Source of the DNA: Macrostomum lignano
Lineage: Eukaryota
Reading direction: 5' to 3'
NCBI GenBank assembly: GCA_002269645.1
Contig: NIVC01003956.1
Span: forward strand, 3,573-67,572
Length of the DNA stretch: 64,000 nucleotides
Shown here: positions 17,075 to 63,552 of the stretch, in pieces
How the letters are laid out: each line of letters begins with the position of its first letter
How positions within the stretch are numbered: the stretch's first letter is position 1
Notes under the pieces: generated by a model
Told to the model about the DNA's origin: nothing
The model's database searches: none
The model's input: the letters and a program-made list of their open reading frames with translations, nothing else
Translations under genes and position numbers: made by a program

Positions 17075-17598
17075 GGGTACACAACAATTGACTGCCACAG
17101 TTTGACTGCCACAATTTGACTGCTGAGAAATTTGACTGCCAGCAAAATGACTGCCAAACAATTTGACTGCTGACAAAATGACACAGATAGAATGATTGCA
17201 GAAAAAATGACTGCTGACAATTTGACTGCCAACAAAATGACTGCAAACAAAATGACAATTTGCTCTTTATGAGTGAAGATGCAAGCCACGTTTGCCTTTC
17301 AGCAGCAATACATGCTGAATGTCTGCAATCATTTTGCTAGCAATCAAATTGCCACAGTCAAATTGTTGGCAGTCATTCTGTCCATAGTCATTTTGTTGGC
17401 AGTCAAATTGTTCGCAGTCATTTTGTCCGCGGTCATTTTGTAAGCAGTCAAATTGCTCAGCATTCAAATTGTCTGCAGTCAAATTGACCATAGTCAAATT
17501 GCTCACAGTCATTTTGTCTGCGGTCATTTTGTCGGCAGTCAAATTGACCATAGTCAAATTGTGGCAGTCAAATTGTGGCAGTCAATTGTTGTAGACCC
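17075..17598. mobile_element. MULE/foldback-type MITE, 524 bp, built of about 15-nt subrepeats
   Basis: TIR GGGTACACAACAATTGACTGCCAC / GTGGCAGTCAATTGTTGTAGACCC; 9-bp TSD TCCCAAGAT on both sides; arms made of (AAT/AAA)TTGACTGC units in opposite orientation. Confidence 0.88.
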
Positions 17599-34600: not shown

Positions 34601-35550
34601 GCAGAACCGGGTTGCTCCAGCAGTCGGCCATGCTCGAAGAAGATCGGCGGCCCCTCCGGTCTTCTTGACAGGGCATCAGCGTTGGCGTGGTCCTTGCCTT
34701 TGCGGTGGTTGAGCTGGAAGCGGAACTCGCTTAGGCGTTCGATCCAGCGGCCTAAAATACCTGTGGCCTTAGTTTGGTTCAGTAACCACAGTAAGGCCCG
34801 ATGATCGGATCGAACTTCAAACTTCTTGCCGATTAAGTAGTGACGGAAATGTCGCATAGCGTCCACAATTGCAAGCAGCTCCTTCTTCGTGACCGTGTAG
34901 CGCTTCTCAGGATCGCGAAGAATGCAATTGGACGTTCGACGCCGTCGGATTGCAGTTGTCCAAGACAAGCGCCTATTCGAATATCAGAGGCATCCGTATC
35001 GAGGACAAACTTCACTGCAAGATGAGAATTAAACTCGGGCAGAGTGAGAACTACAGTTGAACATAAGTTCTTCTTCAGAGTGTCGAACGCGTGCTGATGC
35101 TCGGAAGTCCAGTGCTGCCGCAGGTTGCCAATGTCCTTTCGCGTCAGGGCATGCAGCGGCGCAGTCACTCCAGTGTAGCCGTCGACAAACTTGTGGTAGT
35201 AATTGGCGAGGCCCAGGAATTGTCTCAGTTAAGTAACGGACTGTGGCACGGGCCAATTACGGATCTGCGCAATCTTGTCCTCACAGGTCTTCAGGCCGTC
35301 GGGAGTCACGACGTGACCTAAATAATGCAGCTCCTTGAGGAACAAATGACACTTTTTCGGTTTCACTTTGAGGTTGGCTGCGATGATGCGCTAGAGTACA
35401 GTTCGCAAGTTGTCCAGCTGCTCCTTGAAAGTCACTGAGTGCACCACGATGTCGTCCATGTAGCCAAGCGCAGTCTTTGGCGTCAGGCCGTCCAGGAGCT
35501 TATTGATGCAACGCTGAAATCTGCCAGGACTATCGTGGAGACCCATCGGT
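31660..35550 (-). mobile_element. Decayed Ty3/Gypsy pol (RT C-half, RNase H, integrase) interrupted by a LINE
   Basis: GYMDD, VLDTDASD, RSDHRAL, HANADALSR, HCDVVGP and TDQGTNF motifs; several stops and frameshifts. Confidence 0.92.
31724..33001 (-). mobile_element. 5'-truncated Ingi/I-group LINE (RT thumb, partial RNase H, C-terminal Cys motif, (AAC)n tail)
   Basis: NSAARVITGCCRSTP, FQAEEEAI and CLTDSQALL motifs; tail AAATAACAACAACAAAAAC; 14-bp TSD with 1 mismatch (31710-31723, 33002-33015). Confidence 0.85.
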
Positions 35551-36849
35551 AGAGACTGTCGGACTGGGCATTGGCGCCAGGGGAGCCGCAACGGCGACAT
35601 CCGCAGAGCGGCCAGAGGAGCCGCCACCGGCGACGTCCGCAGAGCGGCCAGAGGAGCCGCCGCTGTTGCCGTCGCTTGAAAAAGGTATAAACCTTAGCTC
35701 GCTGCGAAAACTGTACACGCGCCGCAGCTCGGCTGAGTTCATTTCCCCGGGATTTTTTATTTCCGGCATGAAAACACCATTCAGGTTATTGGAAGTTAAT
35801 TTTGCAACCCATACCGGCGGCAACTGAAATTCATAATTTAAAACGATGAATTTTATGAATGATAAACTAAAATAAATTGTATAGCAAAATCTGGATAATT
35901 GCAGAAAGAATAAAAAGAACTCGCCTAAAATAGACTACTTAAAGTTTAATAAATTGTTTTAGGGCTCACCATAAGCCATTCGCACGGCTGCGCGAACCTC
36001 CTTCCGCATCAAATCAACCGTAGGTTGTCGCCCTGACGATTGCGTAAGCTGATTTTCGGATGACAGAAGTTCAAATTTCTAAAAAACGCCGTGCGTCGAT
36101 TAGTATAGGAGATTAAAGAGATAACCAGTATCCATACATTAGATATTACAAGCAGAACCAAACAGAAGGATATTAAAATATAAATTCCTACTGAATTTCT
36201 TTCTTGACATACTCTTGCTAGTCCTTAAATACTGTTATTATAATTACCTGGATAAGACCACACTCCGCGTGGAGAAATTCGTCTAATCCTGGAGACGCGC
36301 ATACACGGAGATTCGTCCCGTCGCGCTTCTTAGAAATAACAACTACATGGTAGTTGTTAAACATCGCACGGGCCTAGACGAAGAATTGCGTAACGTCATT
36401 ATGGAGGGAGAAAAAAACAGTTCAGCCCAACTGCCGATCTGATCATTTACGAAAAAATATATTTCTGATAGCTAAATTCCATATCGTACTTAGCTTTACC
36501 ATACTGTCTATTATTACCAGTTCCTCCAACTCAAGCCCCGATGGGCATCGCTGATGGCTCTGCTCATTTGCCTCCTTGGTAACATTCTAGCACGGCCCTG
36601 TCGTCATCGGTGAGTTTCTTGAACTCATTAGCTAAGAAAGCCATCGGTTCCATCGAAAAGCGGTCTGAAAGATAAATCCAAACAGTTTAAACGAAAACTA
36701 AATTGCTTAAGTCACTGATTTTAAACTTAATGAATAAAATATGCTAAACTTACTGGATCCTCTTAGCTTCACAAACATGGACCATGCACTTCTTTTTCGA
36801 ACTTTGCCAAGGCGGCCTATAGTTAAAATAAAAGCACTTCTGGAAAAGC

Positions 36850-44997: not shown

Positions 44998-47400
44998 TTA
45001 GAGCTCCATCTCCATGCCGATGTCAGGCAAGTCCGGGTCGCCTTCGGCGAGCACCTCAGGGTGGCGCAAGCTGGGCTCGAACAGCTGACTGCCTCGCAGG
45101 TCAGGCTGAGCTGTGGCCGGCTGCTCCGGCGCGGGCTGATCGGCTGGGTCGACTTCGCTGTCTTCGCTCGACTCATAGGGCAGCATTGGCCGCTCTGTCT
45201 GGCGCGGCGGCTCCTGTGGTCGATCTGCCATCATCTGCGGCACCTTGATGATGTTGTTGCGGTGAACTAGCATTTCAGCTGGGCGTCCTCGGCGGGCTGT
45301 CGCTGGCTTGATCCAATACGCCACTTCTCCGACTTTCTTGACGACCTTGTACATGCTCTTGTACGGCCGGTGGAACTTGGGCAGCTCTCCCAGTTCGAGC
45401 TTCGGGTTGGCCAGGCAGACCAGGTCTCCGGGCTGCAGCTCCACGGGCTTTGGCCGGTTCTCGTAGTACTCCTCTCGGCGCTGGATCTCGGCTCGCAGTC
45501 GCTGTCGCACAATTCGTTCTGTCTCGGCCAGTCTGCGCTGATGTTTGGCAATGTACTCCGGGAGATCAGCTGATACATCCAGTCGGTCTAGGGTGTTATC
45601 GATCGGATACCGGTAGGGCACTCCGTAGATGACATAATGCGGCGAGAACCCGGTTGTACGATTGACTGCTGATCTTAAAGCTGTTAAAGCGGCTGGAAAC
45701 ATCTTGTCCCATTGCTGATGGTCTTCTAGGAGACAGGTGAGCACCTTCTTGATGTTCTTATTGCACGACTCAGCTTGTCCATTAGCCCATGGCGAATACG
45801 GCGGCGTCGTTGTCTGCCGGATGCCGTAAACTTCGCAGAAGTGCCGGAACTCGTGTCCTGTGAACTGTTTCCCTTGATCGGAGTGAATCCATGCCGGGAT
45901 TCCGGTGATCGGAAACACTTGTTCCTGCAGGAGCATTATGATGGTCTTGGCCCGCTGATTCTTCATGGCGAAGGCGAAGGGGTATTTCGACGTAGTGTCG
46001 ACTTAGGTCAAGATGTACTTGTTTCCTCGGCCTGTCGGGTCTCCAGTGGGGCCCAGGATATCGATTGCACATCGCCCATAGATTTCACAGACCGGAAACG
46101 ATTGTACATGCGCCGGAATTCGTCGCCGTCCTTTGCTCTGAGTACAGGTCTGGCAGGATGCGACATAGTCGGACACTGCCTTGGCCAGAGCAGTGTGAGC
46201 CGTCCCCGTGCGCTGCGCGCTCTTGTCAGCCCCGCTGTTCAATGTACTCTATCTCCCGCCAGCCAACTTAACCCTTCGGCCCTTGCAATATTCAAACCCC
46301 CACCCCATTCAGTTCTTCTCTCCTCTGCAGCCAATCGGCTTGAGCTTTGGCCCTTCTAGCATTATGTACATCGTATTGCATATCGATCAACCACAATATA
46401 TAATAGCACGCAAGGCCAAGTGGAAGCCTAAGCTTTTTTCCATTCGCAATTAATTGAGCCTTTACAGGCAGGTCGCCAGAACCTTTCGCGCACCTTCGCG
46501 ATGGTGAAGTCTCGGCCCATGTGTCCGCAGTAGGGTGAACCGTGGAGGTCGGCGAACACCGTGGCGTCGAGGCTCTTCGGCAGGACGATCCGCGCCGTTT
46601 CCTCCTCGCCAATATCGTCGAAATGAATTACCAGTAGTCCATCGTCTCGGACTTCGAGCTGCTCGTAGAACGCTAGTAGGTTTCGTTCGTCTCGCGTCAT
46701 ATTCAAACGCTGATTCAGCGGCGGCTTCGGCTGTCGGCTTTCCAAAAGATTGATCATCATGGCGATGGCAAAGTCAGCACGCTGATGAGTCTGGAGCTCC
46801 TCACGAGTGACTGGCCTCGGGATGTGATCAGTTAGATTCAATGTTGGGCGTCGGTTAGTTAAATTAGTCGGCGCGGCTTCGGCTGTGGCGGCATGGTTCG
46901 GGGTCTGGAGCTCCCTCCGCATGATCGCTACTCTGGCCGGTTGCCGGGTTGTTGATGTGCCCGAAGGTCGATCCTCGTCGGTATCTTCGGCGTCACTGTT
47001 GTCGGATTCAGATCGGTCAGCAGTTGATGATGAGTCAGCAGAGCTGTCCGCACCGCTGCTGAATCTCACTCTTTTCTCGAACTTCGGGCAGCGAGCGGGT
47101 TGGCAGCTGTCCTCTCTGGCTGCGCTGTGGTCGCTGTCCGTGCCGTCTCCAGCTAGTAGTCGGCGGCTCCTTGACAGGCAACATGTCGTGCTACTGAAAC
47201 TGGTAGGCGACCTCTGCGAGTCATAGTAACGACTGGCTGATGGCCTCGGCTTCGTCGCCGGCGGGTGCAGCTCTGTCAGCGGCTTGCTGTCGGCTGTCGG
47301 TGTTGCTGGCGGCGTAGCCTCGCCGTTGGACTCCTTCAGCTTAGTCGGCGGTTTCCGTCGCTTACGGCGGGTCGACGGCTTCTTGCTCGTCGCTCGGCGG
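44998..47400 (-). mobile_element. Ty3/Gypsy pol 3' part (linker, integrase with GPY/F-like region), 5'-truncated
   Basis: LHGSPYCGHMG, CQTC, IDILGP, HSDQGKQF and GQAESCNK motifs; closely related to the 31-35 kb copy. Confidence 0.92.
46194..46466. mobile_element. Solo LTR (273 bp) inserted in the integrase HHCC region
   Basis: TG...CA ends; 5-bp TSD AGCAG/GGCAG. Removing it restores WRPALAK. Confidence 0.8.
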
Positions 47401-49127: not shown

Positions 49128-52030
49128 GTGAGTGGACTCACTCTGACTCACTGCCCAGTGCCCCACTCAAAAGTTTTTGCCCTTGCTCCTACCCTCTGCT
49201 CTGATTCCATATCCTCTCCCCTGCTCAAAAACAACGAGAACAATTTCATACCAGATGTTTGTTTTCCTCTCCTCTCCATCCCGGGAATTATGCGCTTCGA
49301 AATGTCAGCTGGCAAAACACGAGCCCCTGGAAGGATGTCTTATCCAAGACACATCTTATCTGATGTTCTGACGATCACCAAAGAGCTGCGAGTCTGCAGC
49401 TTGCACTTCCTGTCTACCGCCTACAACTGCCCAGCTTTAAGACACAGTGCCGGAGCACGGCTGCGCTGGGACGCCCTTCCAGACCTCGAACTGACGATGC
49501 CTCGCTTGAGTCTTTACGATATCAAACCAGTGGTAGCTAGAAGTGATGAAGAAGCGGATAACACCTACCCACCTCAGCTCGAGCGCTGGGACAAAGATCC
49601 AGTAGCGGTAGCTATGCCTCATTTAATTCTGTCTACGCAGTCTAGAAATCAGTGTGTTGCAAAATCTGCCATAACCGCTGGGCAAAGCAAGACTTTAGTA
49701 CAGCTAAGAAAAACACGTCAGCGCGTGAGCAGACAACGAGCGACCATCAAGCGTCTGCAGCAGCAAATTTGCAAGGCTAAGGGGATTAAATTCGGAAGTA
49801 CTCCAATGCGTCGTATGGCCTCAAACAGCAGGAAGCTTCACTTCATCGCAGCTCGCGGCATGAGATGGTCAAAGGATGACCTCACCGCTACAATAAGGCT
49901 CCACCATAAAAACCCGGCTGCATACAGGATGCTCAGAAAAGATTGGCAGCTACCCCTTCCTTCGGAGTCTGCACTCAAGCGCCGGACATGTCAGTTCTTC
50001 AAATCGCCAGGAGTCTGCTCAACAACTCTGATGCTGCTGAAACAGAAACTTGCCACAGGCCCAGAACATCAGCGAATAGCAACCCTATGCTTCGATGGGA
50101 TGAGCCTATCACCTAGCGTTCGCTACGATCAACACAAAGATAAGGTCATCGGCTTTGACACAAGCAGCTCCACTGAAAATGCTCAGCAAGTTCTAAAGCC
50201 TATCACGGAAGCCATCGTTGCTGTTTTGCGAGCCGTTTCAGCAAACTGGAAGCAAGCTATCGCCTATTACCCAGTTCATCGAACTCTCGGACAGTCGGGC
50301 TTTGCCGCTGCAATCGAAAATTGTCTCCATGCGAGTCATGCTATCGGTATTCGAGTCATTGCTCTTGTTGCTGACCAGGAGACAACACAGTGGGCACTAC
50401 TCTCTCGAATGGTAAGTTAGTTATTTGGCTACTAACTTGTATTTGTGGGACTATACGAGGACTATATAGTCTATACGGGGACTATATCTATATAACTAAA
50501 TCTGAAATATCATTTACTGATTTACAAAATTCCGAGTAATTAAATGAAAGCTAAATCGCCTAAATGTGATTTGCAGGTCTCACCATCTGCGCCTTTTTTC
50601 GTCACCCAGTGAGCCTAAAGCCGGTGTATGTGATAGTAGACATACCACACTGTCTGAAGAATCTACGCAATGCGCTTGTGAAAAACGATGTGGCTTTTGA
50701 CGGAAACAAACTGGCAAAATGGCAGCATGTTGTGGATTTTTTTGAAGCCGATCGTAGCCGTTCACTTCGATTGGCAAGTCGACTTACTGACGCTCATATC
50801 GCCCTACCGCTTGGACAGAAGATGCGCGTGTCTATAGCAGCTCAAGTGCTCAGTCATTCAGTTGCCAGCGGTATGCAAACTCTTTTGCATTATCAGGAAA
50901 TAGAGCCCAGCGCTTCGCAGACGGCGGAGTTTCTACAGCGCGTAAACGATCTGTTCGATATGCTGAACTCCGCAATAGTGCACGACAAAGGCTTCAAGCG
51001 GCCGATCTGCCGCGAGTCGCTAGCTGCACAAACTAACGAGCTGCGCAAAGCTGAGGCCTTTCTGCAGAGCTTGCGATTTTTACCGAAAAGCGGCAAGCCT
51101 GAAAAGTCGACTATGAAGTTTAAAGAAGCTTGGCGCCTTTCAGCTGCATCGATTCGTGAGCTCTCAACTGCGCTGATCGACGAGGAGAGTTTCGACTACG
51201 TCTGCACTCGCAGTCTTACTCAGGATCACGTGGAAGTGAGTTGTAGAATAATTTTAATGATAATAAATTAAAATAGCGAGTTATCAATTAAATATTCAAA
51301 AAATGGCAACGTTTTGCAGAATCTCTTCAGCATCATAAGAGGCCGAAATGGTTTCAATGAGAAGCCCGAGCTGGCAGCATTTGTCGGAGCATTGAGATCA
51401 GTGGCAGCTAGCGGACTTGATCGCCCTGATTCTGCAGCACGGAATTGTGAAGACGATGGGTGCACTGCGGCTGTGACAGCCAATCTTTCGCCTGCTGCTG
51501 CAGACACGAGCTGCGCATCTCCAAGCGACTTTCCTACGACCAGCATTGCTCAGCAGGCATCGCAGCCATCTCAACCAGATCCTATTCTTGCTGAAGCCAC
51601 TAAGTACGTCGGTGGCTTTGTGCTCAAAACAAGCCGTGTTCTGGAATGCTGTGCATGCAAGCAGGTGCTAACTGCCGCAGAGCCTAGAGGTGTACACCTA
51701 AAGAACAAGCTATTTAGCCATGCAGTCAACGGACTGACGCAGCCTTCAGCCGCTGCCCTTCTTGCGTTTTCAAGATTGGAGGCGTCTTTTTTAGAAAAAA
51801 TTGAAACATGCGCTTTGCTTCCAAAGGTGGCTGCACAAATTGTTAGCAAACTCCTGTCTGATGAAATCCAATTTCCGGCTTGCAGTGCACATTTTTCTGA
51901 TGTGCACAACAGTATTGTCTTGGCATTTGTTCGCTTGCGGTTGCATCATTGGTGCCGGGAAAAGATGCGCAGCTTGAAAGCTGCTGCTTATAAGCGGTGT
52001 GCAGTTCGCAAAGTAAAGAAATTTAATTAA
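49128..52030 (+). mobile_element. P-element/THAP9-like transposase gene, three exons (introns 50412-50576, 51236-51319)
   Basis: RVCSLHF (THAP), LCFDGMSL, DIPHCLKNLRNAL, KMRVSIAAQVLS and TQDHVE|NLFSIIR motifs. One frameshift in the T6 run near 50594; the 5' end is unclear. Confidence 0.88.
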
Positions 52031-52929: not shown

Positions 52930-53990
52930 TTGGTTGGGCTCATTCACGATAGGATTAGCTACTCACTCACCTCTATTGGGGACATCAGGTCTGGAGACTC
53001 AGCAGGCGTTCGACTCCAGTTGATTTTGTTCTCCTCAATGAATTTCCGAGCAAGCCGGCTGGTATGCTTAGGATCATTGTCCTTATTAAGGCAAAAAAGC
53101 AAGTCAAAGCAAGAATAATATTTCATGGCAATTAGTTTTAGAATAAGAAAATTAACACAGCTAGGACCAGTAACTACGAGACTTGTACACATATACGCTC
53201 GTACACGCATCTAGCGAACACTTACTGCAAACAGTCGGTGGCCATTCGGAAACATGCTCTGAATTGTTGGCAACAGAGCTCTGGCAAGAATTTCGTTGAC
53301 ATAGAACTCGGCTTTCATGATCCCTTTGAAGATTACAACTTGAGTGGCACCTCTGCGGCTAATTCCAGCCCACACATGAACCTAAAGTATGCATGTTATG
53401 CATATTATCGAAAAAAAAGTTACGATTCCAAGCATTGCCTCGTCGCTTAAGCCTTGTCTATAATATTGCCTATAGAGTTCTCACCTTCAATGAATGCTTA
53501 GGCATTTGCATTTTAGGACGAGTAGCATGCATTCTCCGAAAAACAGTGCGGTGCGTTCTGCGAGACATGGCAACTGTGCATTCGTCAGTAAATATCACAT
53601 TCTCAAACGAGTCGTTAAGGGCTAATTTCGTCAAGCTCCAGAGGCACCGAACAATCTGGTTTTTTCTTTTAATCACTTGGCAGTATTGAGTCGTTGTTCT
53701 AATCCACCCTAACTTTCGTCTTATTCTCTTAACGGGGCTAGAGCTAATTTTGAGACCGAATTCTGACTTTACTTTTAGACAGATGTCACCAGCTGAGATG
53801 CGTCCCTCAGATTTCTTAATAAGGGTGTCAATATAAATCGCATGTTCAAAATCCCACTTGGTTTCGTTCTCCCTTCGAGTGATGGTACTTCTTTAAGAAA
53901 TTTGATGGCGTCGAACAGCAGACTGTGAAACCCCAATAGTCCTACTAACGTCATTTACAGTTTTATGCTCTAATAAAAACATTCTCCCAA
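52930..53990 (-). pseudogene. Tc1-type transposase pseudogene
   Basis: FENVIFTDE, DNDPKHTS and TPAESPDL motifs, with stops and frameshifts. Confidence 0.82.
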
Positions 53991-54417
53991 TGTGCATTTT
54001 TTGAGAGGATGATAAACGGTAACCCTGCCTCATTTCGCTACAAAGAAAATTTGTATACTCGTCAGACAAATGCTAGGGCTAATACTGCAGTATATGCTTG
54101 GGACACACAGAACATATATGAATTTTTATATGGTCATTAAATACAGCCAGCCCCCAGTCCCAACCAAGCAATCATGAAAAGTTATAGAAACACTATAAAA
54201 ACTATAGAAGACTGATACCAAGCGCCATGTACATGTGTTGTATCCCCCTTCCTCGCTGGCACGGCCGGGTTGGGTGACGGGTAGCGGTGTCGGGGTTCGG
54301 GTACTGGACTGCCCAGGGCTTACGAGCTCGATCGGCGACCCCGAGGCGTACGGACACTTCGGGGGGAGGTCAAGGTTGAGAAGTCGAGAGAGAGGGGAGG
54401 GGCGGCTGTGGGCGGGC

Positions 54418-54710
54418 GGCCACTCGACAGCCTGGTGAGTCAAGGAAGAGAGAGAGGGCTGCGGGCGGTCGGCCACTCGACAGCCTGGTGAGTCAAGGAA
54501 AAGAGAGAGGGCTGTGGGCGGGCGGCCACTCGACAGCCTGGTGAGTCAAGGAAGAGAGAGAGGGCTGCGGGCGGTCGGCCACTCGACAGCCTGGTGAGTC
54601 AAGGAAAAGAGAGAGGGCTGTGGGCGGGCGGCCACTCGACAGCCTGGTGAGTCAAGGAAGAGAGAGAGGGCTGCGGGCGGTCGGCCACTCGACAGCCTGG
54701 TGAGTCAGAC
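54418..54710. repeat. 53-bp tandem repeat inside the LTR (5 full + 1 partial here; 3 full + 1 variant at 62488-62685)
   Basis: GGCCACTCGACAGCCTGGTGAGTCAAGGAA(G/A)AGAGAGAGGGCTG(C/T)GGGCGG(T/G)C, alternating two variants; each has TGAGTCA. Confidence 0.92.
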
Positions 54711-54830
54711 TGAGGAGAGAGTGAGAGAGAGAGAGATCAGGAGAGCGACCCCGAGGAACACAGGCAATTGTCTCGACAGCTTACCGGGCCGGGTCGATTA
54801 TAGCACTCATACACGGGAAGGCCGATCGAT

Positions 54831-54873
54831 TGCAATAAATTGAGTCTTCGCAGTAAGAGACCGTCTTTACGGC
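54831..54873 (-). other. Spliced-leader exon-like sequence in the 3' LTR
   Basis: Minus strand GCCGTAAAGACGGTCTCTTACTGCGAAGACTCAATTTATTGCA; matches the M. lignano SL as I recall it, apart from the final TG. Confidence 0.85.
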
Positions 54874-55406
54874 TGATCGCTGGTCACGTTCGTTTATTTA
54901 TCGCGGTGGGCGCAAATGGGCGCAGGCACGGTGAGAAAAGGGGCGGGGTCTGAGCGTCGCCTTAAATAACGAGTAAAAAGGGGCAGGGGCGCAAACAAGG
55001 GGGGGGGAGAAAGGGCTTAAACAATGGAGCTGATTGACAGCTGATTGGCTGCGGCGAGGGGAGGGTGGAAGCGCGCACGGCCAGGGAGAGGGAGAGAGAG
55101 CAGAGGCCCAGCCAATCAGCACGGCTAGCCAAAGGGCTAAACAGCCAAGGCGAGAGAGAGAGAGAAAGAGAGCAGAGGCTCAGCCAAAGGGCTCATAGCT
55201 CCAGACTGGCTTGAGCCGGGGGGGGGGTAACAATAATCAACTACCAAAGTCAACAACTATCAAAGTGCACTTGCACCAGGGGAGCACTGTGACACAGGTC
55301 ACAACACCCTCCCCCCTAAAAAAAGAAAACGACGCGCTTTGACTGAATGAAAATGAAAAAAAAAATGTAATGAAATGAAACTGAATGAAAGAGACCAAGA
55401 GTGTCA

Positions 55407-55970
55407 GGCAGCGGCCGAGAGCGCAGGACAGGGGCCGAGGATGTCGGACAGGCCGAGAACACCGGGCACGGCCGAGAATGCCGGACTGTGGCCGAAAACG
55501 CCGGGCATGGCCGAGAATGCCGGACAGCGACCGAGAATGCCGGGCAGCGGCCGAGAACGCCTGGCATGGCCGAGAATGCCGGACAGCGGCCGAGAATGCC
55601 GGGCAGCGACCGAGAACGCCGGGCATGGCCGAGAACGCCGGGCATGGCCGAGAGTGCCGGACAGCGGCCGAGAATGCCGGACAGCGACCGAGAATGCCGG
55701 GCAGCGGCCGAGAACGCCTGGCATGGCCGAGAATGCCGGACAGCGGCCGAGAATGCCGGGCAGCGGCCGAGAATGCCGGGCATGGCCGAGAACGCCGGGC
55801 ATGGCCGAGAGTGCCGGACAGCGGCCGAGAATGCCGGGCAGCGGCCGAGAATGCCGGGCAGCGACCGAGAACGCCGGGCATGGCCGAGAGTGCCGGACAG
55901 CGGCCGAGAATGCCGGGCAGCGGCCGAGAATGCCGGGCAACGACCGAGAGCGCCGGGCATGGCCGAGAGT
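55407..55970. repeat. Array of 19/20-nt monomers in the element's 3' UTR
   Basis: CCGAGAATGCCGGACAGCGG, CCGAGAATGCCGGGCAGCGG and CCGAGAACGCCGGGCATGG units, roughly 28-30 monomers. Confidence 0.9.
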
Positions 55971-56101
55971 GTTCCCCGCCCTTCCTTCGGGGCCGCTCCC
56001 AGTGCCAAACAGAGGGATCACAACGACGATCAGAGGAGAGATGGGATGAAATGAAGGAGTGAAGGTCTCGTGCCCGCCCTGGCATCCTGCCCCAGAACCC
56101 C

Positions 56102-56983
56102 CTAGACCGCCACCTCCGCCGCCCGGCGCAACAACCCCAACACGCGTCCTCCGTCGATTAGTTCAAACTGAGGGATCGCAACACTCATGACGAACCGAGT
56201 GCTTCGCTTGAAGGCAGGCCGCCGCCAGACACGCCGAGCATGACCCCGACACTTGGCGCTGATGTCACGGAGAATGAACTTGACAGTCTGAGCCAAAAGC
56301 TCGGCGATTTCGCGTCGATGATCCAGCCGCTCGCTGCCGCACAGTCCCACCATTTCAGTCAAAAGCCGGAACATCGCAGCTGGACTCCCCGACAACAAAG
56401 CGTGCCGAAGCTCCGACCGGATTCGAGCTCTTCGCTGCGTTGCCTCCCCGCTCCAGGTGTATTCCACCTCGGTACTCGGCTCGCTCCTCATCAGCCACGC
56501 TGGCGACTCCCGTTGGTCGATGACGAGCTCCGGTTCGTCTTCTGACATCGAAGTTTCGCCGTCGGATTCATTCAAGAGCTCTTCTTCCTCTGACTGCGTG
56601 ATTTCACAGCAGCTCTGAGCAGTCTCCTCGCCGCCGCAACCACCACGCTCGCTTCCTTCCGACTCCCTGTCCTCGTCTGACTCTTCTGTTTCGTCTTCAA
56701 TCGTTACGACAAACTCCTCCGGGACGCACATCCCATCCGGCGGGACAAAATACCGGGCGCACTCGAGCGGGTTGCTAACGGCATCCTGCCCGAACCGGTA
56801 GTACAGCGCTCGTCGAAACGGACATAGCAGGACCGCACTCGCATGCTGCAGCCTCTGGAAATTCTCCGTTCCACCGGGTCCACACTTGTCGGGGTGCCGT
56901 CGCAGGCTCTCACGGCGGTACGCACGTCGCAGCTCCTCCTCCGTCGCGAAGGGGCTGACACCAAACTCGGCGTAGAGGTCCAT
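56102..56983 (-). CDS. J-domain (DnaJ/Hsp40-type) accessory protein, 293 aa, inside the retrotransposon
   Basis: MDLYAEFGVSPFATEEELRRAYRRESLRRHPDKCGPGGTENFQRLQHASAVLLCPFRRALYYRFG is a complete J domain with HPD. It is followed by an acidic linker and a helical C-terminus. ATG lies 16 nt after a TTGCAG acceptor. Confidence 0.9.
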   Translation of the reverse strand: MDLYAEFGVSPFATEEELRRAYRRESLRRHPDKCGPGGTENFQRLQHASAVLLCPFRRALYYRFGQDAVSNPLECARYFVPPDGMCVPEEFVVTIEDETEESDEDRESEGSERGGCGGEETAQSCCEITQSEEEELLNESDGETSMSEDEPELVIDQRESPAWLMRSEPSTEVEYTWSGEATQRRARIRSELRHALLSGSPAAMFRLLTEMVGLCGSERLDHRREIAELLAQTVKFILRDISAKCRGHARRVWRRPAFKRSTRFVMSVAIPQFELIDGGRVLGLLRRAAEVAV

Positions 56984-57189
56984 GCCCGGAAAGCAGTGCC
57001 TGCAACAACCACGACTCACTTTTGAGAGCAGGGCAATGGTTCCTTCGAGCCTCTTTGGGGCGCCGATCCTTCATCCCTGATGGCAGGGTTGGGCAGGTGG
57101 GACCTCCACTGACGGGCCTTAAGAGGGGAAATATATATTTTTGTTTGTGAAGCAGAGGCAATAACACGAGCCCAGTTTTCAATAACGCG

Positions 57190-57335
57190 GGTGATGACGC
57201 AGACGATGCTTCGAACCAAATGTTGATGACGCAGGTGATGACGCGGATGATGCTTCGAACCAAATGTTGATGACGCAGGTGATGACGCGGATGATGCTTC
57301 GAACCAAATGTTGATGACGCAGGTGATGACGCGAC
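57190..57335. repeat. 44-bp repeat, about 3 copies, between pol and the J-domain ORF
   Basis: GATGACGCAGGTGATGACGCGGATGATGCTTCGAACCAAATGTT. Confidence 0.9.
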
Positions 57336-57360
57336 ATTGCGCACGCACTCACGCCCGCTC

Positions 57361-60300
57361 TTAATAATAAACGGGCGTTCCATAACGCTGCGGAACCCTT
57401 CGATCCCTCTGGGGTCGACCTTCGATGACTTCAACTGGCGCTTCCGGCTGCGGCTGCACTCCTGGCTGCTGCACATCCATTGGTTCTCCCTCCTCTCGAA
57501 CCCGCCCGGAATGTCGCCACCATCGCTCCTCATCCTCATCGTCCGATTCCTGCGAGTCCTCCCTGACGGATTCCGTCTCTTGAGCAGGACCTGGGTGGTA
57601 CCTCCTTGGTGCAGGACGCCGAGGGCCACCGGTGCCGTCGACCGGGTACTTCCGGTACCGAGGCAGGAGGTTGTTAAAGTGCACCACCTTGATCGGCTTC
57701 CGTCGACCTTCCTGTCGAATCCTATAGCGCGTCTCCGACAGCTTCTCGAGAACTACGGCAGGTCCGGTCCAGGGTGAGTGGAGCTTCGCTTTGGCACCGG
57801 CCTTCAACACGGGGTTGTAGACGAACACCTCGTCGCCAGCCACGAATTCTCGACCCTTCACCTTCCGGTCGTACCAGTCTTTCTGCACTCGTTGATATGA
57901 CGTTATTCTCTCACGCACCACCCGATGGGCTTCCACGAGCGTCTCCCGCAGGTTCTGGACTTCCTCGCAGTACGGTTCGATGTCCAGTGGGCGCGCCACT
58001 CCCAAGTCAACTGGCAGAGACATCTCGCGACCATGCAGAAGGAAGAAGGGTGAGTAGCCGGTGCCGCGGTGCACACTGGAGCGATACGCCATGAGCGCCG
58101 GGGCAACGAATTCGTCCCACCGCCTCTGATCCGGCTCCTTCACCAGGTGCGCCCGGATCACTGCAGTCAGCGTCTTATTGAAGCTTTCCACTTGGCCGTT
58201 TCCAGAGGGGTGATAGGCGGTCGTACGCGTCTTTCGGATATTCAGACTTTCGCACAGCTGGCCGATCAATTGCGACTCGAAATTGGCTCCCTGATCCGAG
58301 TGGATTGTTCCTGGGGCTCCGTAGTGACAGACCCACTCCTCGAGCATTGCCCTTGCACAGGTGCTGGCCGTCTGATCTGGCACCGGTACTGCCACTGGCC
58401 ACTTACTGAACGCGTCCTGCATCGTCAGTATGTATTTGTTGCCTCGGACGCTGGTTGGCAGTGGTCCAATCAAATCCACCATCACTCTTTCAAACACATG
58501 GCTGCTGGGAATCGGCTCCAATGGGGCCTTCCGCCGCATCCCGGGCTTGCTCCGGTTACAGTCGTCACACCTTCGCACAAACTCCTCGACCTCTCGCTTC
58601 AAGCCGGGTCTCCAGAATCGGTTCCTGACTTTCTCCAGAGTCTTTGCTACGCCGAAGTGTCCACCTCCTGGTCCAGAGTGCAGCGTCTGCAGAGCGTCGG
58701 GGATCAATTTCTTCGGGAGAACAGCCCGCGGTGGGTGACGTCCCAGATCCTTGATGACGAGGGTGTTGTCCACAATTTCCAGCCGAGGCTTTTGTGCCCA
58801 GATGGCTCGGGTCGTTGGTGACGCACCCCGAGGTGGCTCTTCGTTTGCTCGGCCGGCGTGCATCGACTGGTAAACTGGAGCGATGTCGTTGTCCACAGCT
58901 TGTGCTGCTGCCAGCTCATCTCGGCTGAGCAACCCGAGCAGCGTCGTTACCCTGACCCCGGGGAGGTCATCAGTCCGGCACGACGGGCAGTTATCCATTT
59001 CGGGATGTCGTCGCGTCGGCTTGCGTGACAGCGCGTCCGCATTCTGATGACGCGCCCCTGGCCGATGCTCCACTGCGAAGTCGAATGGCGCCAACCTCTC
59101 CATCCACCGAGCCAACTGGCCTTCCGGCTGCCTCATACTTCGGAGCCACTGCAGACTTGCGTGGTCGGTGCGCACCCGGAACCTCCGGCCAAGTAGATAG
59201 TACCGGAACCTCTCTGCGAATGTCACCAGCGCCAGGAGCTCGATTCGTGTCGTGCAATAGTTGAATTCGGCCCCTTGCAGACGCCGACTCCCGTACGCAA
59301 TAACCCGCTCTGACCCGTCTTCTTGTACCTGCGACAAGACTGCTCCGAGACCCTGTCGGGTACTTCCATCGGTATCCAAGATGAACTCACCAGCCGTGGG
59401 GTCGAAGTTCGGGTAGGCCATCACGCGGCAACCGGTCAATTCTTCTTTCAGCTTTTTGAAGGCCTCATCGTGTTCCTCTCTCCAACTGAACGGCTTGTCT
59501 TTCTTTGTCAGATCAAAAAGTGGTGCAGCGACTATCGAGAATTCTGGTATGAAGTTTCGGTAGTAACCAGCCAGACCCAGGAACGACTGAAGGTCTTTTG
59601 CATTTCTTGGAATGCTCCAGTCACGGACTTCCTTGATCTTCTCCGGGTCGACATCGATTCCGTCCTTTGACACGACGTGGCCAAGGAATTTGACCTCATC
59701 GGCCAGGAATCTGCACTTAGATGGCTTTAGCCTCAAGTTGGCTGCGCGCAGGCGCTGGAATACCGCCTCGAGATTCGTTAGATGCTCGCTGACAGTTCGG
59801 GACCAAATGATGATATCGTCGATGTAGACGAGCGCCATTTTCCACAGAAGGTCGTGTAGTACCATATTCATCAACCTTGTGAATGTCGCCGGCGCATTGG
59901 TCAATCCGAAGGGCAGCACCTTGAACGCGAATTGCCCCCGATGCGGAATGACAAAAGCAGTCTTTTCTTGATCCTCCCTTTTGACCTTAACTTGCCAATA
60001 GCCGGAGCAAAGGTCGAGCGTCGAAAATACAGCCGCACCTCCGAGCGCTTCAAGTGCGTCATCGACACGCGGGATTGCTATGGCGTCCTTGACAGTTCGT
60101 TGATTCAACTCTCTGTAGTCGACACACAGTCGCAGTTCCCCATTCTTCTTACGGACACAGACCACTGGCGAACTCCACGGCGATTGGGTCGGTTCAATCA
60201 TCTTCGTTGCCAAAAGCTCGTCGATTTGTCGGTCGACTTCGCCGCGCCAATGTGGCGGTAGCCGTCGCGGAGGCTGTTTTACGGCTGTTCCGGTGGTCTC

Positions 60301-60453
60301 AATTTCATGCTGCACGATGTCCGTCGTCCCGAGGCGCGCTGTACTCTCTGCGAAAACATCTGCGTATCGATTCACCAATCTTAGGAAACTCGCTTTGTCT
60401 GCCCCCGTGAGCTGCTTGGAGCCGTGCTGGTTCAGTGCCGCCTCTGGTCCCAT
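57361..60453 (-). CDS. Gypsy pol: RT, RNase H, integrase (open for 1030 aa)
   Basis: LCVDYRELN, LPFGL, YIDD, ILDTDGS, TDHASL, HQNADALSR, HHCC, VDLIGP / SDQGANF / QVESFN (DDE), and SPWTGP (GPY/F). Confidence 0.97.
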   Translation of the reverse strand: MGPEAALNQHGSKQLTGADKASFLRLVNRYADVFAESTARLGTTDIVQHEIETTGTAVKQPPRRLPPHWRGEVDRQIDELLATKMIEPTQSPWSSPVVCVRKKNGELRLCVDYRELNQRTVKDAIAIPRVDDALEALGGAAVFSTLDLCSGYWQVKVKREDQEKTAFVIPHRGQFAFKVLPFGLTNAPATFTRLMNMVLHDLLWKMALVYIDDIIIWSRTVSEHLTNLEAVFQRLRAANLRLKPSKCRFLADEVKFLGHVVSKDGIDVDPEKIKEVRDWSIPRNAKDLQSFLGLAGYYRNFIPEFSIVAAPLFDLTKKDKPFSWREEHDEAFKKLKEELTGCRVMAYPNFDPTAGEFILDTDGSTRQGLGAVLSQVQEDGSERVIAYGSRRLQGAEFNYCTTRIELLALVTFAERFRYYLLGRRFRVRTDHASLQWLRSMRQPEGQLARWMERLAPFDFAVEHRPGARHQNADALSRKPTRRHPEMDNCPSCRTDDLPGVRVTTLLGLLSRDELAAAQAVDNDIAPVYQSMHAGRANEEPPRGASPTTRAIWAQKPRLEIVDNTLVIKDLGRHPPRAVLPKKLIPDALQTLHSGPGGGHFGVAKTLEKVRNRFWRPGLKREVEEFVRRCDDCNRSKPGMRRKAPLEPIPSSHVFERVMVDLIGPLPTSVRGNKYILTMQDAFSKWPVAVPVPDQTASTCARAMLEEWVCHYGAPGTIHSDQGANFESQLIGQLCESLNIRKTRTTAYHPSGNGQVESFNKTLTAVIRAHLVKEPDQRRWDEFVAPALMAYRSSVHRGTGYSPFFLLHGREMSLPVDLGVARPLDIEPYCEEVQNLRETLVEAHRVVRERITSYQRVQKDWYDRKVKGREFVAGDEVFVYNPVLKAGAKAKLHSPWTGPAVVLEKLSETRYRIRQEGRRKPIKVVHFNNLLPRYRKYPVDGTGGPRRPAPRRYHPGPAQETESVREDSQESDDEDEERWWRHSGRVREEGEPMDVQQPGVQPQPEAPVEVIEGRPQRDRRVPQRYGTPVYY

Positions 60454-61179
60454 GGATCGCAGCTGGGTCGTAAAACCGACGCTTGCTCTTCGATGCTGGC
60501 TACCAGAACCTCTTGAGCCGGATCTGATGGTCGAAACCAGCCGATGACAGCTCCCTTCCGCAGCCGCAGCTCGGAGTCCGTGACATTCGCGAAGTGAACT
60601 GGTAGGGTGTTGCCCTGCTGGATGAGGCAGACGCTCCTGGCTAGCATTGGTCTCTCATCGCTCTTCAGTTTTTCGTCTGGCTCGGCGACGCGCGAGCACT
60701 CCGGAATTCTGTGTCGCTGTTCTCCGAATCCTGGCTGAGACGGTCCGTTCGTGATTGGCCGGAATGATCAAGTTTTCGTTCAGGTACAACCGGCAGACGA
60801 CTGGTTTGTGCTTGGTCTCTCGGATTGGCACACGTGAACCGTTCACGCGGAAAACTCCTCCGGCGAAATCGATTTGGCACCGGTGGCGGCGTAAGAAGTC
60901 GGTGCCTAGCAACAGTTCGTAGCCGACCCCTTGGACCACCGCAATTGGCGTCTGTAAAGTTTCTGATCCGAACTGTAGGGGAAGCGACGCGCATCCTAAC
61001 ACATTCATGGGAGTTCCGTTCGCTGAGATCAGGTGGGTTTCCGAAGGGCTGAGTTCAACTCGAACCGACTTGCTCAACTGCCGCCAGGTCCTCTCGTTCA
61101 CCAGCGACATGACCGAGCCCGAATCCAACAGACACGGCAACTCAATCTCGCCAATTTTTACCGACACGTAGATTGACAC
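60432..61179 (-). CDS. Gypsy aspartic protease and spacer region, split by frameshifts
   Basis: LLDSGSVMSLV and LLLGTDFL motifs; frame changes near 60690 and 60450-60500. Confidence 0.85.
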
Positions 61180-61282
61180 GGGATTAAAAGCTGTTGCAGG
61201 TTGATCTCTATCTCTTGAGCAGTCCGCCGGACATCCTGCTGCACGTCGCTCCGGGCTGCATCTTCGTCTCGGGTTGGGGCCT

Positions 61283-62263
61283 CTACTGTCTCGGCGGAAC
61301 TCCCTCGCCCCTGCGGAAGTTCCCCTTGCCGTTTCCCTGTTGCTGACGGGTTGGGCAGTTAGTCGCGATGTGCCCTGGCTTGTTGCAGAAGAAGCAGCGA
61401 ATTCCTCCCGTTCGTCGAGGCTTCTGATGGTCGCCTTCGTCGGAGTCGGTCGGTCGAGCTGCGGCGCTGCTATGCGGTTCCGCTCTCAGCGACTCGAGCT
61501 GAACCACTTTGCCTTGAAGCTGCCTCACCAGTTTCTTCAACTCCTCGAGCTCTTTGTCCTTTTCTTGGGAGTAGGCTCCATCCTCCCGAGGCACAGATTC
61601 CGCCGCGCCGCTCACCACGAAGACTCCTCGGTGGCCGCTGCCAGTTGCTCCAGCCGATCTCGGTCCCTTCGCCGCCTTGGACGCCGCCTCGAGCTGCCTC
61701 ACCGCGCGTTGTGCTGCCACCAGACCTTCGGGCTGCTGCAGGTAGAGCTTCTCTCGCTGGAGGTCGGAGAGTCTCACCCCTTGCATGAAGCGATCCTTCG
61801 CGAGGTCGTCCTGCAGCTCGGCAGTTGCCGCCGGGTAGGCACAGCGCACCAGTTCAAGGAGAGCATCTGCGTAGGCCTCCAACGACTCGCCATCCTTCTG
61901 ATCTCGGGTTTTTAGCTCGACCTTGCTGTCCTGCTCTGTCCGGTACCGGGAGAAGCGAGCCTCCAACCGGGCGGTGAATCCCTCGTAGTCCAGCGGATCC
62001 ACAGGATCGTCGGGTCCCGGCAGGTTCAGATTATCGACCGCAGCGTACGCCGTAGCGAGATCCAGCATGCTCATCAAGTGCTCGCGGCGATGCTCCTCGT
62101 CAATCTCGGCGGAGTCGCAATAAGCGTTGAAAGAGCGCAGCCAGAGTCGAAAATTCATGCTTGACGTGTACTTCACGGGCTTCGGGAGTCTCGGTGGCTG
62201 GGCTGGTCCATCCGCTCGCAGACGCTCGGCTAGCAGCCGAATCAGTTCGTCCACATTCGCCAT
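61283..62263 (-). CDS. Gypsy gag, 326 aa
   Basis: Starts 25 nt after the PBS; CCHC knuckle CFFCNKPGHIATNC. Confidence 0.93.
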   Translation of the reverse strand: MANVDELIRLLAERLRADGPAQPPRLPKPVKYTSSMNFRLWLRSFNAYCDSAEIDEEHRREHLMSMLDLATAYAAVDNLNLPGPDDPVDPLDYEGFTARLEARFSRYRTEQDSKVELKTRDQKDGESLEAYADALLELVRCAYPAATAELQDDLAKDRFMQGVRLSDLQREKLYLQQPEGLVAAQRAVRQLEAASKAAKGPRSAGATGSGHRGVFVVSGAAESVPREDGAYSQEKDKELEELKKLVRQLQGKVVQLESLRAEPHSSAAARPTDSDEGDHQKPRRTGGIRCFFCNKPGHIATNCPTRQQQGNGKGNFRRGEGVPPRQ

Positions 62264-62287
62264 GACAGCTCACAAGCAAACTGAGCA

Positions 62288-62305
62288 GTCCCTGTTCGGG
62301 CGCCA
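62288..62305 (-). promoter_or_regulatory. Primer-binding site, tRNA-Lys(UUU)
   Basis: TGGCGCCCGAACAGGGAC, the canonical 18-nt Lys3-type PBS, 1 nt after the 5' LTR. Confidence 0.93.
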
Positions 62306-62813
62306 ATGTTGTATCCCCCTTCCTCGCTGGCACGGCCGGGTTGGGCGACGGGTAGCGGTGTCGGGGTTCGGGTACTGGACTGCCCAGGGCTTACGAGCTC
62401 GATCGGCGACCCCGAGGCGTACGGACACTTCGGGGGAGGTCAAGGTTGAGAAGTCGAGAGAGAGGGGAGGGGCGGCTGTGGGCGGGCGGCCACTCGACAG
62501 CCTGGTGAGTCAAGGAAGAGAGAGAGGGCTGCGGGCGGTCGGCCACTCGACAGCCTGGTGAGTCAAGGAAAAGAGAGAGGGCTGTGGGCGGGCGGCCACT
62601 CGACAGCCTGGTGAGTCAAGGAAGAGAGAGAGGGCTGCGGGCGGTCGGCTCGACAGCCTACGCTCACGAGCCTGGTGAGTCAGACTGAGAGAGAGAGAGA
62701 GAGATGAGAGAGAGAGAGATCAGGAGAGCGACCCCGAGGAACACAGGCAATTGTCTCGACAGCTTACCGGGCCGGGTCGATTATAGCACTCATACACGGG
62801 AAGGCCGATCGAT

Positions 62814-62856
62814 TGCAATAAATTGAGTCTTCGCAGTAAGAGACCGTCTTTACGGC
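62814..62856 (-). other. Spliced-leader exon-like sequence in the 5' LTR
   Basis: Same 43 nt as 54831-54873; 19 nt downstream of AATAAA (62881-62876) and 46 nt upstream of CCG|GTAAGC. Confidence 0.85.
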
Positions 62857-63552
62857 TGATCGCTGGTCACGTTCGTTTATTTATCGCGGTGGGCGCAAAT
62901 GGGCGCAGGCACGGTGAGAAAAGGGGCGGGGTCTGAGCGTCGCCTTAAATAACGAGTAAAAAGGGGCAGGGGCGCAAACAAGGGGGGGGAGAAAGGGCTT
63001 AAACAATGGAGCTGATTGACAGCTGATTGGCTGCGGCGAGGGGAGGGTGGAAGCGCGCACGGCCAGGGAGAGGGAGAGAGAGCAGAGGCCCAGCCAATCA
63101 GCACGGCTAGCCAAAGGGCTAAACAGCCAAGGCGAGAGAGAGAGAGAAAGAGAGCAGAGGCTCAGCCAAAGGGCTCATAGCTCCAGACTGGCTTGAGCCG
63201 GGGGGGGGGTAACAATAATCAACTACCAAAGTCAACAACTATCAAAGTGCACTTGCACCAGGGAGCACTGTGACACAGGTCACAACACATGTACAGTGGG
63301 AATTGGGTGATTTAGTTTTGTGTGCAGGGGACAGGAAACTCAGTCAGACCACGCGACTGTATGAAAACTGATTGAGTATCTCGGGACAAAGAAGCAACAG
63401 AAAAAGACGAGCGTCAACTATTCAATCATCATTTCTCTCTTTTCAAGCCTGCTTCAAAAATGAAAAATCGAACGTGTAAAAACATAACTTGTTTCGCACA
63501 AGACACCCACTAGCTCCATCTAAAAATGTTGTTTGAAATTCATGTTTCAGGC

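Follow-up and report, generated by a model that had tools for sequence, protein, structure and literature searches.

How does an LTR retrotransposon express a gene that lies behind gag and pol, and does a host spliced leader (SL) copied into its LTR contribute to that expression? These questions are raised by a locus in a 64,000-nucleotide stretch of DNA (the window) from Macrostomum lignano. The first-pass annotation of this locus proposed that cis-splicing joins an SL-bearing LTR exon to an ORF for a J-domain protein, giving an mRNA that imitates a trans-spliced transcript. Here we examine the element, its splice signals, and the competing routes to such an mRNA.

The element and its J-domain gene

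The locus is a young, recently inserted Ty3/gypsy LTR retrotransposon with gag, pol, and a third gene (ORF3) for a J-domain protein. The element and all of its features lie on the minus strand:

63288..63291, minus strand: target-site duplication, 4 bp, CATG; other copy at 54232-54235
62307..63287, minus strand: 5' LTR, 981 nt, TG...CA
62288..62305, minus strand: primer-binding site, one base past the LTR
61283..62263, minus strand: gag, 326 aa, CCHC knuckle
60655..61110, minus strand: protease part of pol
57361..60453, minus strand: pol with RT, RNase H and integrase, 1030 aa
56102..56983, minus strand: ORF3, 293 aa, encoding an HPD-bearing J domain, an acidic linker and a helical C-terminal domain that is conserved
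55387..55999, minus strand: tandem array, 19/20-nt unit, in the 3' untranslated region
55307..55317, minus strand: polypurine tract
54236..55306, minus strand: 3' LTR, 1071 nt, with a second SL copy (54873-54831)

Two TG...CA LTRs with a target-site duplication, a primer-binding site 3' of the 5' LTR, which we take to match tRNA-Lys, and a polypurine tract ahead of the 3' LTR were all found. The domain order is PR-RT-RH-IN, as in Ty3/gypsy, with protease matches that fall under the Pfam cut-off (E 0.004). Outside the U5 array the LTR pair differs by one substitution and three one-base gaps over 915 aligned bases. The reading frame of this copy is interrupted after protease and before RT; the public model P0001 continues from one into the other. 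The tree of the element's relatives was built by a quick method from 40 rows of database hits only. Named gypsy clades in PMC12801592 include Mag and CsRN1 as well as Gmr1/Osvaldo; the element's short motifs were not found in the supplements of that paper, where line breaks or gaps could mask a match.

The assignment of ORF3 is based on both profile and fold. DnaJ is its single Pfam family (44.9 bits, cut-off 27.8), and the J fold of its model superimposes on 3apq with a Z of 10.7 and an rmsd of 1.2 over 70 residues. It does not have the make-up of an envelope glycoprotein, since no other Pfam family is present and its model shows helices and an acidic linker. The best structural matches of the C-terminal domain, as part of a larger model, reach Z 8.2 to helical bundles, a fold rated common. 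For residues 175-293 the ESM Atlas returned nothing, and otherwise generic DnaJ clusters only, at 0.86.

J proteins related to this one at about 30% identity follow pol in two further M. lignano families, and one probably lies on a metagenome contig as well; a J ORF is found 3' of pol in the families of P0125, P0123, and P0235. The better supported reading is that the J ORF is not a stray capture and that several related families retain it. All five of the other proteins aligned over the J start begin with the same Met-x-Leu-Tyr, so that an ATG borne on an upstream exon is unnecessary. Wider searches were negative: none of 211 pattern matches to the J protein on metagenome contigs was confirmed, viral contigs gave 0 of 34 for the J profile and 0 of 1 for P0004, 80 pol-related metagenome loci held neither a J homolog nor an SL, and a single-sequence word search with the J protein yielded none from 3015 candidates.

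The spliced-leader copy and the donor in the LTR

The signals at issue in the 5' LTR are the following:

62876..62885, minus strand: TATA-like box overlapping AATAAA, putative promoter or poly(A) signal
62814..62856, minus strand: host SL copy without the terminal TG, putative R region, inside the 5' LTR
62791..62793, minus strand: sole ATG of the 594-nt leader; opens a 9-codon uORF if unspliced, with its stop within the donor, and is in frame with the J ORF if joined to 56999
62762..62770, minus strand: splice donor CCG/GTAAGC
62685..62767, minus strand: candidate 83-nt intron within U5 (branch-like CTGAT, CT tract, CAG), rivaling the J acceptor for the donor
62432..62702, minus strand: tandem array, 53-nt unit with CT tract, TGACTCA, and CAG/G

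In each LTR, 33 bases agree exactly with the 35-nt SL of M. lignano as printed in PMC8629364 (62846-62814 and 54863-54831). The match is far above chance: a given 33-mer would occur in 128 kb with a probability of about 2e-15. Contigs from other loci in three of four public sequence runs agree with this one as far as 62856 and then diverge. That the LTR is itself an SL RNA gene was considered and rejected. By the definition taken from PMC8629364 and PMC12582326, the leader of a flatworm SL RNA gene ends in AUG, with a GU donor immediately behind it; here the terminal TG is missing and the donor comes 46 nt later. Rfam gave no SL match in the LTR, folding in three stretches, examined for the three hairpins of an SL RNA, was no better than that of shuffles (z 0.5 to 1.8), and an Sm-binding site, sought in the 5' LTR by the pattern RAU(3-6)GR, had no match. 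The proposed resemblance of the SL head of a J mRNA to a trans-spliced transcript is hypothetical. The AUG with which flatworm leaders end is missing from the LTR copy, and RNA started in the LTR would be expected to have an m7G cap, as against the trimethyl cap borne by SL RNAs. The latter cap is described in PMC8629364. An unspliced genomic RNA would likewise start with the SL.

The motifs on which the annotation relied were borne out. On the minus strand, CCG/GTAAGC lies at 62768/62767, 46 nt beyond 62814, where the SL match ends, and GTTGTTGCAG/G lies at 57000/56999, with the J-ORF ATG (56983) 16 nt beyond it. These motifs are the confirmed part, from which we infer the joined RNA. The donor is strong, ranking second of 412 GT sites in 62856-55306 by a rough, generic, self-made matrix not trained on M. 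lignano; when LTR-like stretches of 100 nt were resampled 5000 times, 86 contained G/GTRAG. The leader is poor in start codons, with one ATG against a shuffle mean of 5.0 (one or none in 3.1% of 3000 shuffles). AATAAA is the element's sole poly(A) hexamer, one per LTR (62881 and 54898). TGACTCA, presumably an AP-1 site, occurs four times in the 5' LTR and six times in the 3' LTR, and the 5' LTR has no canonical heat-shock element.

The candidate U5 intron is kept in both LTRs, and its acceptor ranks second of 516. Several acceptors outscore 57000 (2.2), namely 62685 (7.9), the U5 repeats at 62608, 62555, and 62502 (4.6 each), and a second site ahead of the J ORF at 57118 (4.6). Because the U5 and 57118 acceptors are both stronger than 57000 and nearer to the donor, the donor has an alternative explanation.

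Routes to an mRNA for the J-domain protein

Between pol and the J ORF lie the features that distinguish the possible routes:

57182..57333, minus strand: 44-nt repeat, three copies, with 7 TGACG/CGTCA words, candidate internal enhancer
57108..57137, minus strand: TATATA (57137) and initiator-like TCAGT (57112), candidate internal promoter; overlaps the second acceptor, CTCTTAAG/G at 57118/57117
57072..57074, minus strand: out-of-frame ATG opening a 54-codon uORF that overlaps the J start
56999..57009, minus strand: splice acceptor GTTGTTGCAG/G

By the generic matrix the acceptor at 57000 is middling, ranking 15th of 516 AG sites in 62856-55306, and is without a pyrimidine tract. Among 5000 resampled spacers, 410 had TGCAG within their final 60 nt, so that the acceptor alone is not above chance. 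Its reading frame is more distinctive. The leader ATG (62793), joined at 56999, is in frame with the J ORF, and the joining of donor to acceptor leaves the ORF3 frame open. Seventeen AGs lie between the pol stop and the J ATG, four of which give the leader ATG an open frame as far as the J stop; among these four, 56999 alone has a positive acceptor score, and it is the sole in-frame one of the four positive-scoring AGs in the spacer. The frame, an argument that the annotation did not make, thus weighs for cis-splicing, yet a frame match is a one-in-three event.

Public sequence runs were searched for the predicted joints. The stretch is contained in 20 of the 24 runs listed, across 7 studies and always as contigs, with no RNA run among the holders listed. 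Joints were sought over 56000-63500 in the contigs of 4 of the 24 runs, skipping the CT repeat at 62674-62722. None of the joints 56999-62768, SL-56999, SL-57117, and 62684-62768 was among those listed in the contigs of the four runs, and in each run one contig bridges 57000/56999 unspliced. Contigs show presence, not absence, and rare forms drop out of them, so only an abundant spliced isoform is made less likely. Contig depth over J and pol, which cannot rank genes, was 29.6/30.6, 16/15.5, 31.5/20.7, and 572/552. SL joints at 57472 and 60891 were rejected, as their sides measure 20-22 nt and their contigs have unrelated loose ends nearby; another at 56173, in two runs, has no AG ahead of it and was therefore discounted as probably fortuitous. 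In run X3 the J contig begins at 57115 with two unaligned letters, near the 57118 acceptor and the predicted start, and upstream cover seems thin; contigs of runs X2 and X4 extend to 57234, and this start, seen in one run, is less than a weak hint.

Cis-splicing from 62768 to 56999, as first proposed, stands as the likeliest single route to a J mRNA, plausible if somewhat short of an even chance. By this account the SL may have entered the LTR when reverse transcriptase ran onto the end of an SL-headed RNA, and would now serve as a short R region at the transcription start, its AUG lost so that the gag leader is kept clean. By analogy with the ORF3 or env gene of other LTR elements, the J protein would be made from a subgenomic RNA, in which an 89-nt first exon (the SL copy plus 46 nt) is spliced to 56999 as a minor or condition-dependent isoform. 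Translation could begin at the exon ATG or at the gene's own conserved ATG. With a client held by the helical C-terminal domain, the HPD J domain would then engage Hsp70, probably aiding the folding or assembly of Gag/Pol particles.

The annotation overlooked, along with the stronger acceptors at 62685, in the U5 repeats, and at 57118, a TATA/initiator pair at 57137/57110, 110-140 nt ahead of the 57000 acceptor. The pair fits the annotation's own alternative, an internal promoter serving a true trans-splice site. An internal promoter is a real possibility, which we hold tentatively: the 44-nt repeats would act as an enhancer, TATATA and TCAGT would start an RNA near 57110, and its 111-nt leader would be either kept or trans-spliced off as an outron at 56999, leaving the LTR donor to serve the short U5 intron or to bind U1 without splicing. 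The TATAWA at 57137 is the only one in the 7-kb inner element, TCAGT follows 25 nt further, no other such pair exists there, and the pair arose in 4 of 5000 resampled spacers. However, the pattern was picked after the sequence had been inspected, its initiator consensus is that of Drosophila, and it occurs seven times (in six places) in the whole window against 1.35 in shuffles, so that the true background is above the resampled estimate. TTGCAG at 57005-57000 fits the M. lignano trans-acceptor motif [T/C]TNCAG (PMC8629364), and the protein sequences of two relatives hint at an AG standing immediately ahead of the ATG (Gln-Met in P0122; a join at a codon boundary in model P0125), which would place the SL AUG in frame. 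At the present locus, by contrast, an SL AUG trans-spliced at 56999 would open an out-of-frame, 29-codon ORF spanning the J start, in the same wrong frame as the ATG at 57074, whose own 54 codons would cover the J start of an unspliced RNA. The missing SL-56999 joint also counts against this route, to the extent that contigs can. Its precedents are the Oikopleura Tor3b/4b env genes (PMC4402516) and the SL1 trans-spliced subgenomic RNA of C. elegans Cer1 (PMC3315495), as excerpts of those papers describe them.

Quite improbable, in our view, is operon-like processing or use of another acceptor, whereby SL trans-splicing, or cis-splicing, resolves an LTR-started RNA at 57118/57117, the stronger site, or at 56999 once the 83-nt U5 intron has used the donor. 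The 57118 site comes after an AU-rich stretch, and about 15% of M. lignano genes are in operons (PMC8629364), but a joint at 57117 leaves uORFs (77 codons from the LTR ATG, 33 after an SL AUG) as well as the ATG at 57074, and no such joint was listed. No more probable is that the family has no dedicated J mRNA, with donor and acceptor incidental and the J ORF decaying or rarely read from genomic RNA. The 7550 nt of 62856-55306 contain 15 instances of GTRAG and 16 of YTNCAG, and the contigs bridge only unspliced sequence. Against this, 293 codons are open, the HPD is kept, and homologs in other families are conserved, which argues for selection on the protein and thus for some means of expression.

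A stronger form of the cis-splicing account appears unlikely. In it the captured SL was made the R region, its AUG removed, and a donor set behind it, so that the element itself encodes an SL-headed, cis-spliced message for an Hsp70 co-chaperone and, without the trans-splicing machinery, obtains whatever stability, translation, or escape from neoblast silencing depends on the SL; the ancestral J gene would have been trans-spliced, and through an SL-made R, cDNA copied from any trans-spliced host mRNA could jump onto the end of the element RNA, giving the element an inbuilt means of capturing genes. It is more likely that the SL head is a tolerated or mildly useful relic than a device specific to the J mRNA.

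Relation to other elements and significance

The following comparisons rest on excerpts of the cited papers. ORF3s are typically expressed through spliced messages (PMC5408684). Oikopleura Tor3a, with env (PMC4402516), and bdelloid elements, with env, GDSL, or DEDDy ORF3s (PMC5408684), share with this element the gag-pol-ORF3 layout, a donor near the 5' end, and an acceptor just ahead of ORF3; here, in contrast, ORF3 is a soluble J-domain protein, the donor lies within the LTR, and splicing is predicted only. Tor3b/4b env likewise sits behind a short spacer with promoter-like motifs, but that internal promoter was mapped by RACE, with no SL involvement in the excerpt, whereas the one here is predicted (PMC4402516). 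Cer1, also a gypsy element in an SL-using animal, makes an accessory protein from a processed subgenomic RNA, the 2.4-kb spliced RNA with SL1. It receives SL1 in trans; here the LTR DNA itself contains the SL, and a separate ORF encodes the accessory protein (PMC3315495).

Parasitic flatworms also have partial leaders within LTR and LINE elements; 597 such loci were set aside, and these leaders have been taken as traces of trans-spliced transcripts (PMC12582326). The excerpt mentions them in passing, with neither position nor function; here the SL lies in both LTRs of a young family, beside the only poly(A) hexamer, with its AUG missing and a donor 46 nt on. The Echinococcus ta-TRIM solo LTR offers another flatworm LTR donor, cis-spliced to a former SL trans-splice acceptor that it takes over, but in a host gene and, in the excerpt, with no SL copy in the LTR, whereas the ORF here is the element's own (PMC4558846). 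Foamy virus has a strong major donor inside its LTR, able to act via U1 binding; that donor is upstream of the poly(A) signal, whereas the only AATAAA here is 114 nt upstream of the donor (PMC3694450).

Retroelements with spliced ORF3 messages and retroelements with SL relics are thus each already known. Open-licence full texts yielded no account of a gypsy clade that retains a J-domain ORF3, nor of a young LTR with an SL fixed at its R position. For annotation, reads from these LTRs may pass as SL-bearing. A retrotransposon with its own Hsp70 partner would offer a simple handle on chaperone use by retroelement particles, and its presence in a worm capable of transgenesis allows a direct test of whether SL sequence acts when it is not trans-spliced in.

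The retrotransposon and the leader copy in its LTRs

The splice sites under study lie in an LTR retrotransposon; it and the other elements of the window are as follows.

63287-54236, minus strand: LTR retrotransposon, 9.05 kb, containing the splice sites
32998-35552 and 44998-46922, minus strand: two decayed gypsy pol remnants, 34-49% identical to the pol of this retrotransposon
49290-51271: P-element/THAP9-like transposase pieces with TNP-like RNase H and GTP-binding domains
52959-53892: Tc1-type transposase look-alike with broken frames, just beyond the 3' LTR, judged by eye
30367-31059: ORF with a sub-threshold QRICH1-like match (E 6.6e-7), adjoining the inverted repeat pair 28820-28937/30140-30257
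17075-17598 and 18401-19543: foldback-like inverted arrays built from 15-nt units, together with a 35-nt satellite

The LTRs (981 and 1071 nt) start with TG and end with CA, with CATG duplicated on either side. Leaving aside their tandem array, one substitution and three one-base gaps separate them across 915 aligned bases, which makes this a recent insertion. Inward of the 5' LTR come, in turn, a primer-binding site, gag (which has a CCHC knuckle), pol with its domains arranged PR-RT-RH-IN, a third ORF and then a polypurine tract. Across RT and RNase H the protein has 100% identity with the M. lignano model BOX15_Mlig001877g1 (P0001), which establishes the species. The pol frame of this copy is disrupted between protease and RT, where P0001 is uninterrupted; the break either is peculiar to this copy or reflects an assembly error. 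The 53-nt U5 unit (62432-62702 and 54309-54791), unequal in copy number between the LTRs (4 versus 6), matches an acceptor on the minus strand and a perfect donor CTG/GTGAGT on the plus strand, and holds, beside GA repeats, TGACTCA, which we take to be AP-1-like. At 55316-55381, directly ahead of the 3' LTR, three strong acceptor-like sites rank 1, 3 and 10 of 516: two are TTCATTCAG, and the third overlaps the polypurine tract.

Both LTRs match, at 62846-62814 and 54863-54831, 33 of the 35 bases of the M. lignano spliced leader (SL) as given in PMC8629364, but lack the TG that would complete the flatworm AUG at its end; no third copy occurs anywhere in the 64-kb window. In three of four sequencing runs, contigs from other loci are identical to the element up to 62856 and diverge beyond, from which we infer that the LTR carries some 43 leader bases but nothing of the DNA that precedes the leader in the SL gene, which would indicate capture from RNA. 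At 62856, upstream sequences of other SL-bearing loci share TGAG...GTTC...TTT words in three runs, possibly the SL RNA gene promoter, and in contigs of two runs a donor comes directly after a variant form of the leader end. That the LTR is itself an SL RNA gene was rejected, as it has no AUG-GU junction, Sm-site pattern or Rfam match and, in three stretches, folds no better than shuffled sequence (z 0.5 to 1.8). Relics of an SL inside retroelements are already known: PMC12582326, in the portion consulted, sets aside 597 flatworm loci with partial leaders inside LTR or LINE elements and takes them for remnants of trans-spliced transcripts. In each LTR the one AATAAA, found nowhere else in the element, precedes the SL copy by 25 nt and shares bases with a TATA-like box. 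Transcription would start at the SL copy and end in or near it, which would make the SL the R region and place the donor in U5.

Candidate routes to a J-domain mRNA

The first-pass annotation proposed that the donor CCG/GTAAGC at 62768/62767 is cis-spliced to an acceptor at 57000/56999, yielding an SL-headed mRNA for the J-domain protein of ORF3 (56102..56983, minus strand). The donor, the acceptor and both distances, 46 nt from SL to donor and 16 nt from acceptor to the J ATG, are exact in the sequence. Sites were scored with a rough generic matrix built for the report, in which the donor ranks second of 412 GT sites. The 594-nt leader contains a single ATG, at 62793, whereas shuffled versions average 5.0; unspliced, this ATG opens nine codons with a stop within the donor, and spliced to 56999 it would add 14 in-frame codons, for 307 aa in total, although such a match of frame is a one-in-three event. 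The pol-J spacer has 17 AGs, of which four score above zero and four leave the frame open; both are true of 56999 alone. A true SL at 56999 would open a predicted 29-codon out-of-frame ORF across the J start, which counts for cis-splicing. As precedents, the parts of PMC5408684 and PMC4558846 drawn on here describe ORF3 as usually expressed via splicing and a flatworm LTR donor observed using an SL acceptor in cis, respectively. Against this, the acceptor lacks a pyrimidine tract and stands 15th among 516 AG sites, J homologs start at the same Met, and a competing textbook acceptor at 62685, 83 nt past the donor, scores 7.9 versus 2.2 for 57000, with further competitors in the 53-nt array (three) and at 57118. 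A strong donor, AAA/GTGAGT at 57014-57022 (rank 3 of 412), lies just 20 nt upstream of the J acceptor.

The J RNA may instead arise from an internal promoter, with or without trans-splicing. The sole TATAWA of the 7-kb inner element is in the pol-J spacer, 25 nt upstream of TCAGT and downstream of three 44-nt repeats, a pairing that arose in 4 of 5000 resampled spacers; it was, however, selected with the sequence already in view, and the window has it at 6 places versus 1.35 expected. The sections used of PMC4402516 (an internal promoter for ORF3 of Oikopleura Tor3b/4b) and PMC3315495 (an SL1 trans-spliced subgenomic RNA of Cer1) supply precedents, but an ATG at 57074 is out of frame with J, in the frame that an SL AUG would have. 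We regard this route as possible, with a likelihood of roughly a third, and cis-splicing from 62768 to 56999, at somewhat less than an even chance, as the best single guess, close to it.

Junctions were sought in contigs from 4 of 24 listed runs, representing 4 studies. Three have adapter ends at the SL and an SL-bin/inner depth ratio of 1331-3537; in the remaining run the ratio is 35. Three runs thus appear to be RNA and one DNA. One contig per run crosses 57000/56999 unspliced in all four, a bridge that genomic RNA would give identically, and the contigs, which drop rare forms, have no listed joint linking 57000/56999 with either 62768 or the SL. Three SL joints listed elsewhere were discarded as chance; one of them, which attaches the full SL at 56173, near the J ORF end, in contigs of two runs, lacks a preceding AG and so probably belongs to another gene. 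The proposal that the J mRNA mimics a trans-spliced transcript is speculation, because genomic RNA would be equally SL-headed and would lack a trimethyl cap.

The J gene and its relatives

A full HMMER search returned relatives extending past the J domain. Full-length alignments at 28-34% identity were obtained for the database proteins P0122, P0124, P0126 and P0283 and for part of P0125; these share with the J protein HPD, a [CSD]P[FY][RL]R motif, an acidic linker and a C-terminal domain that is helical. Alignment of P0139 and P0273 is confined to the later part of the J protein. Three M. lignano models fuse such a protein to pol: in P0125 it adjoins an integrase end matching the P0002 family (98.5% across 202 residues), and in P0123 and P0235 to the pol of a third family. 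P0126 and the pol P0004 each come from a 7008-nt JGI contig, presumably one and the same given the equal length. This J-next-to-pol evidence leaves out P0122, P0124, P0283 and P0139. A quick tree built from 40 pol sequences places the pol of this element in one group with P0004, P0007 and three M. lignano pols (SH-aLRT 100). No second J ORF was found in the 64-kb window by J profile search.

Folded with four homologs, the J protein gave a mean pLDDT of 74 and a J fold (Z 10.7, rmsd 1.2 over 70 residues); its C-terminal bundle is confident in the model, without a distinctive structural match. J proteins are Hsp70 partners, and from this established biology the ORF3 protein is predicted to be one as well.

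M. lignano LTR families are classified in PMC12801592, whose main text, as far as covered and with its 137 family sequences outside scope, has no match for splic, DnaJ or leader; the portions covered of PMC6431247, PMC5408684 and PMC6338049 have none for DnaJ. Among the matches listed from the parts covered of open-licence full texts, none describes an ORF3 with a J domain, or an SL in the R position. The splice-site motifs are real and the element's architecture is unusual. Two other findings are sturdier news than the splice: ORF3, with its J domain, is conserved, and an SL sits at the LTR start. As far as sequence comparison goes, the J gene is cargo of this clade.
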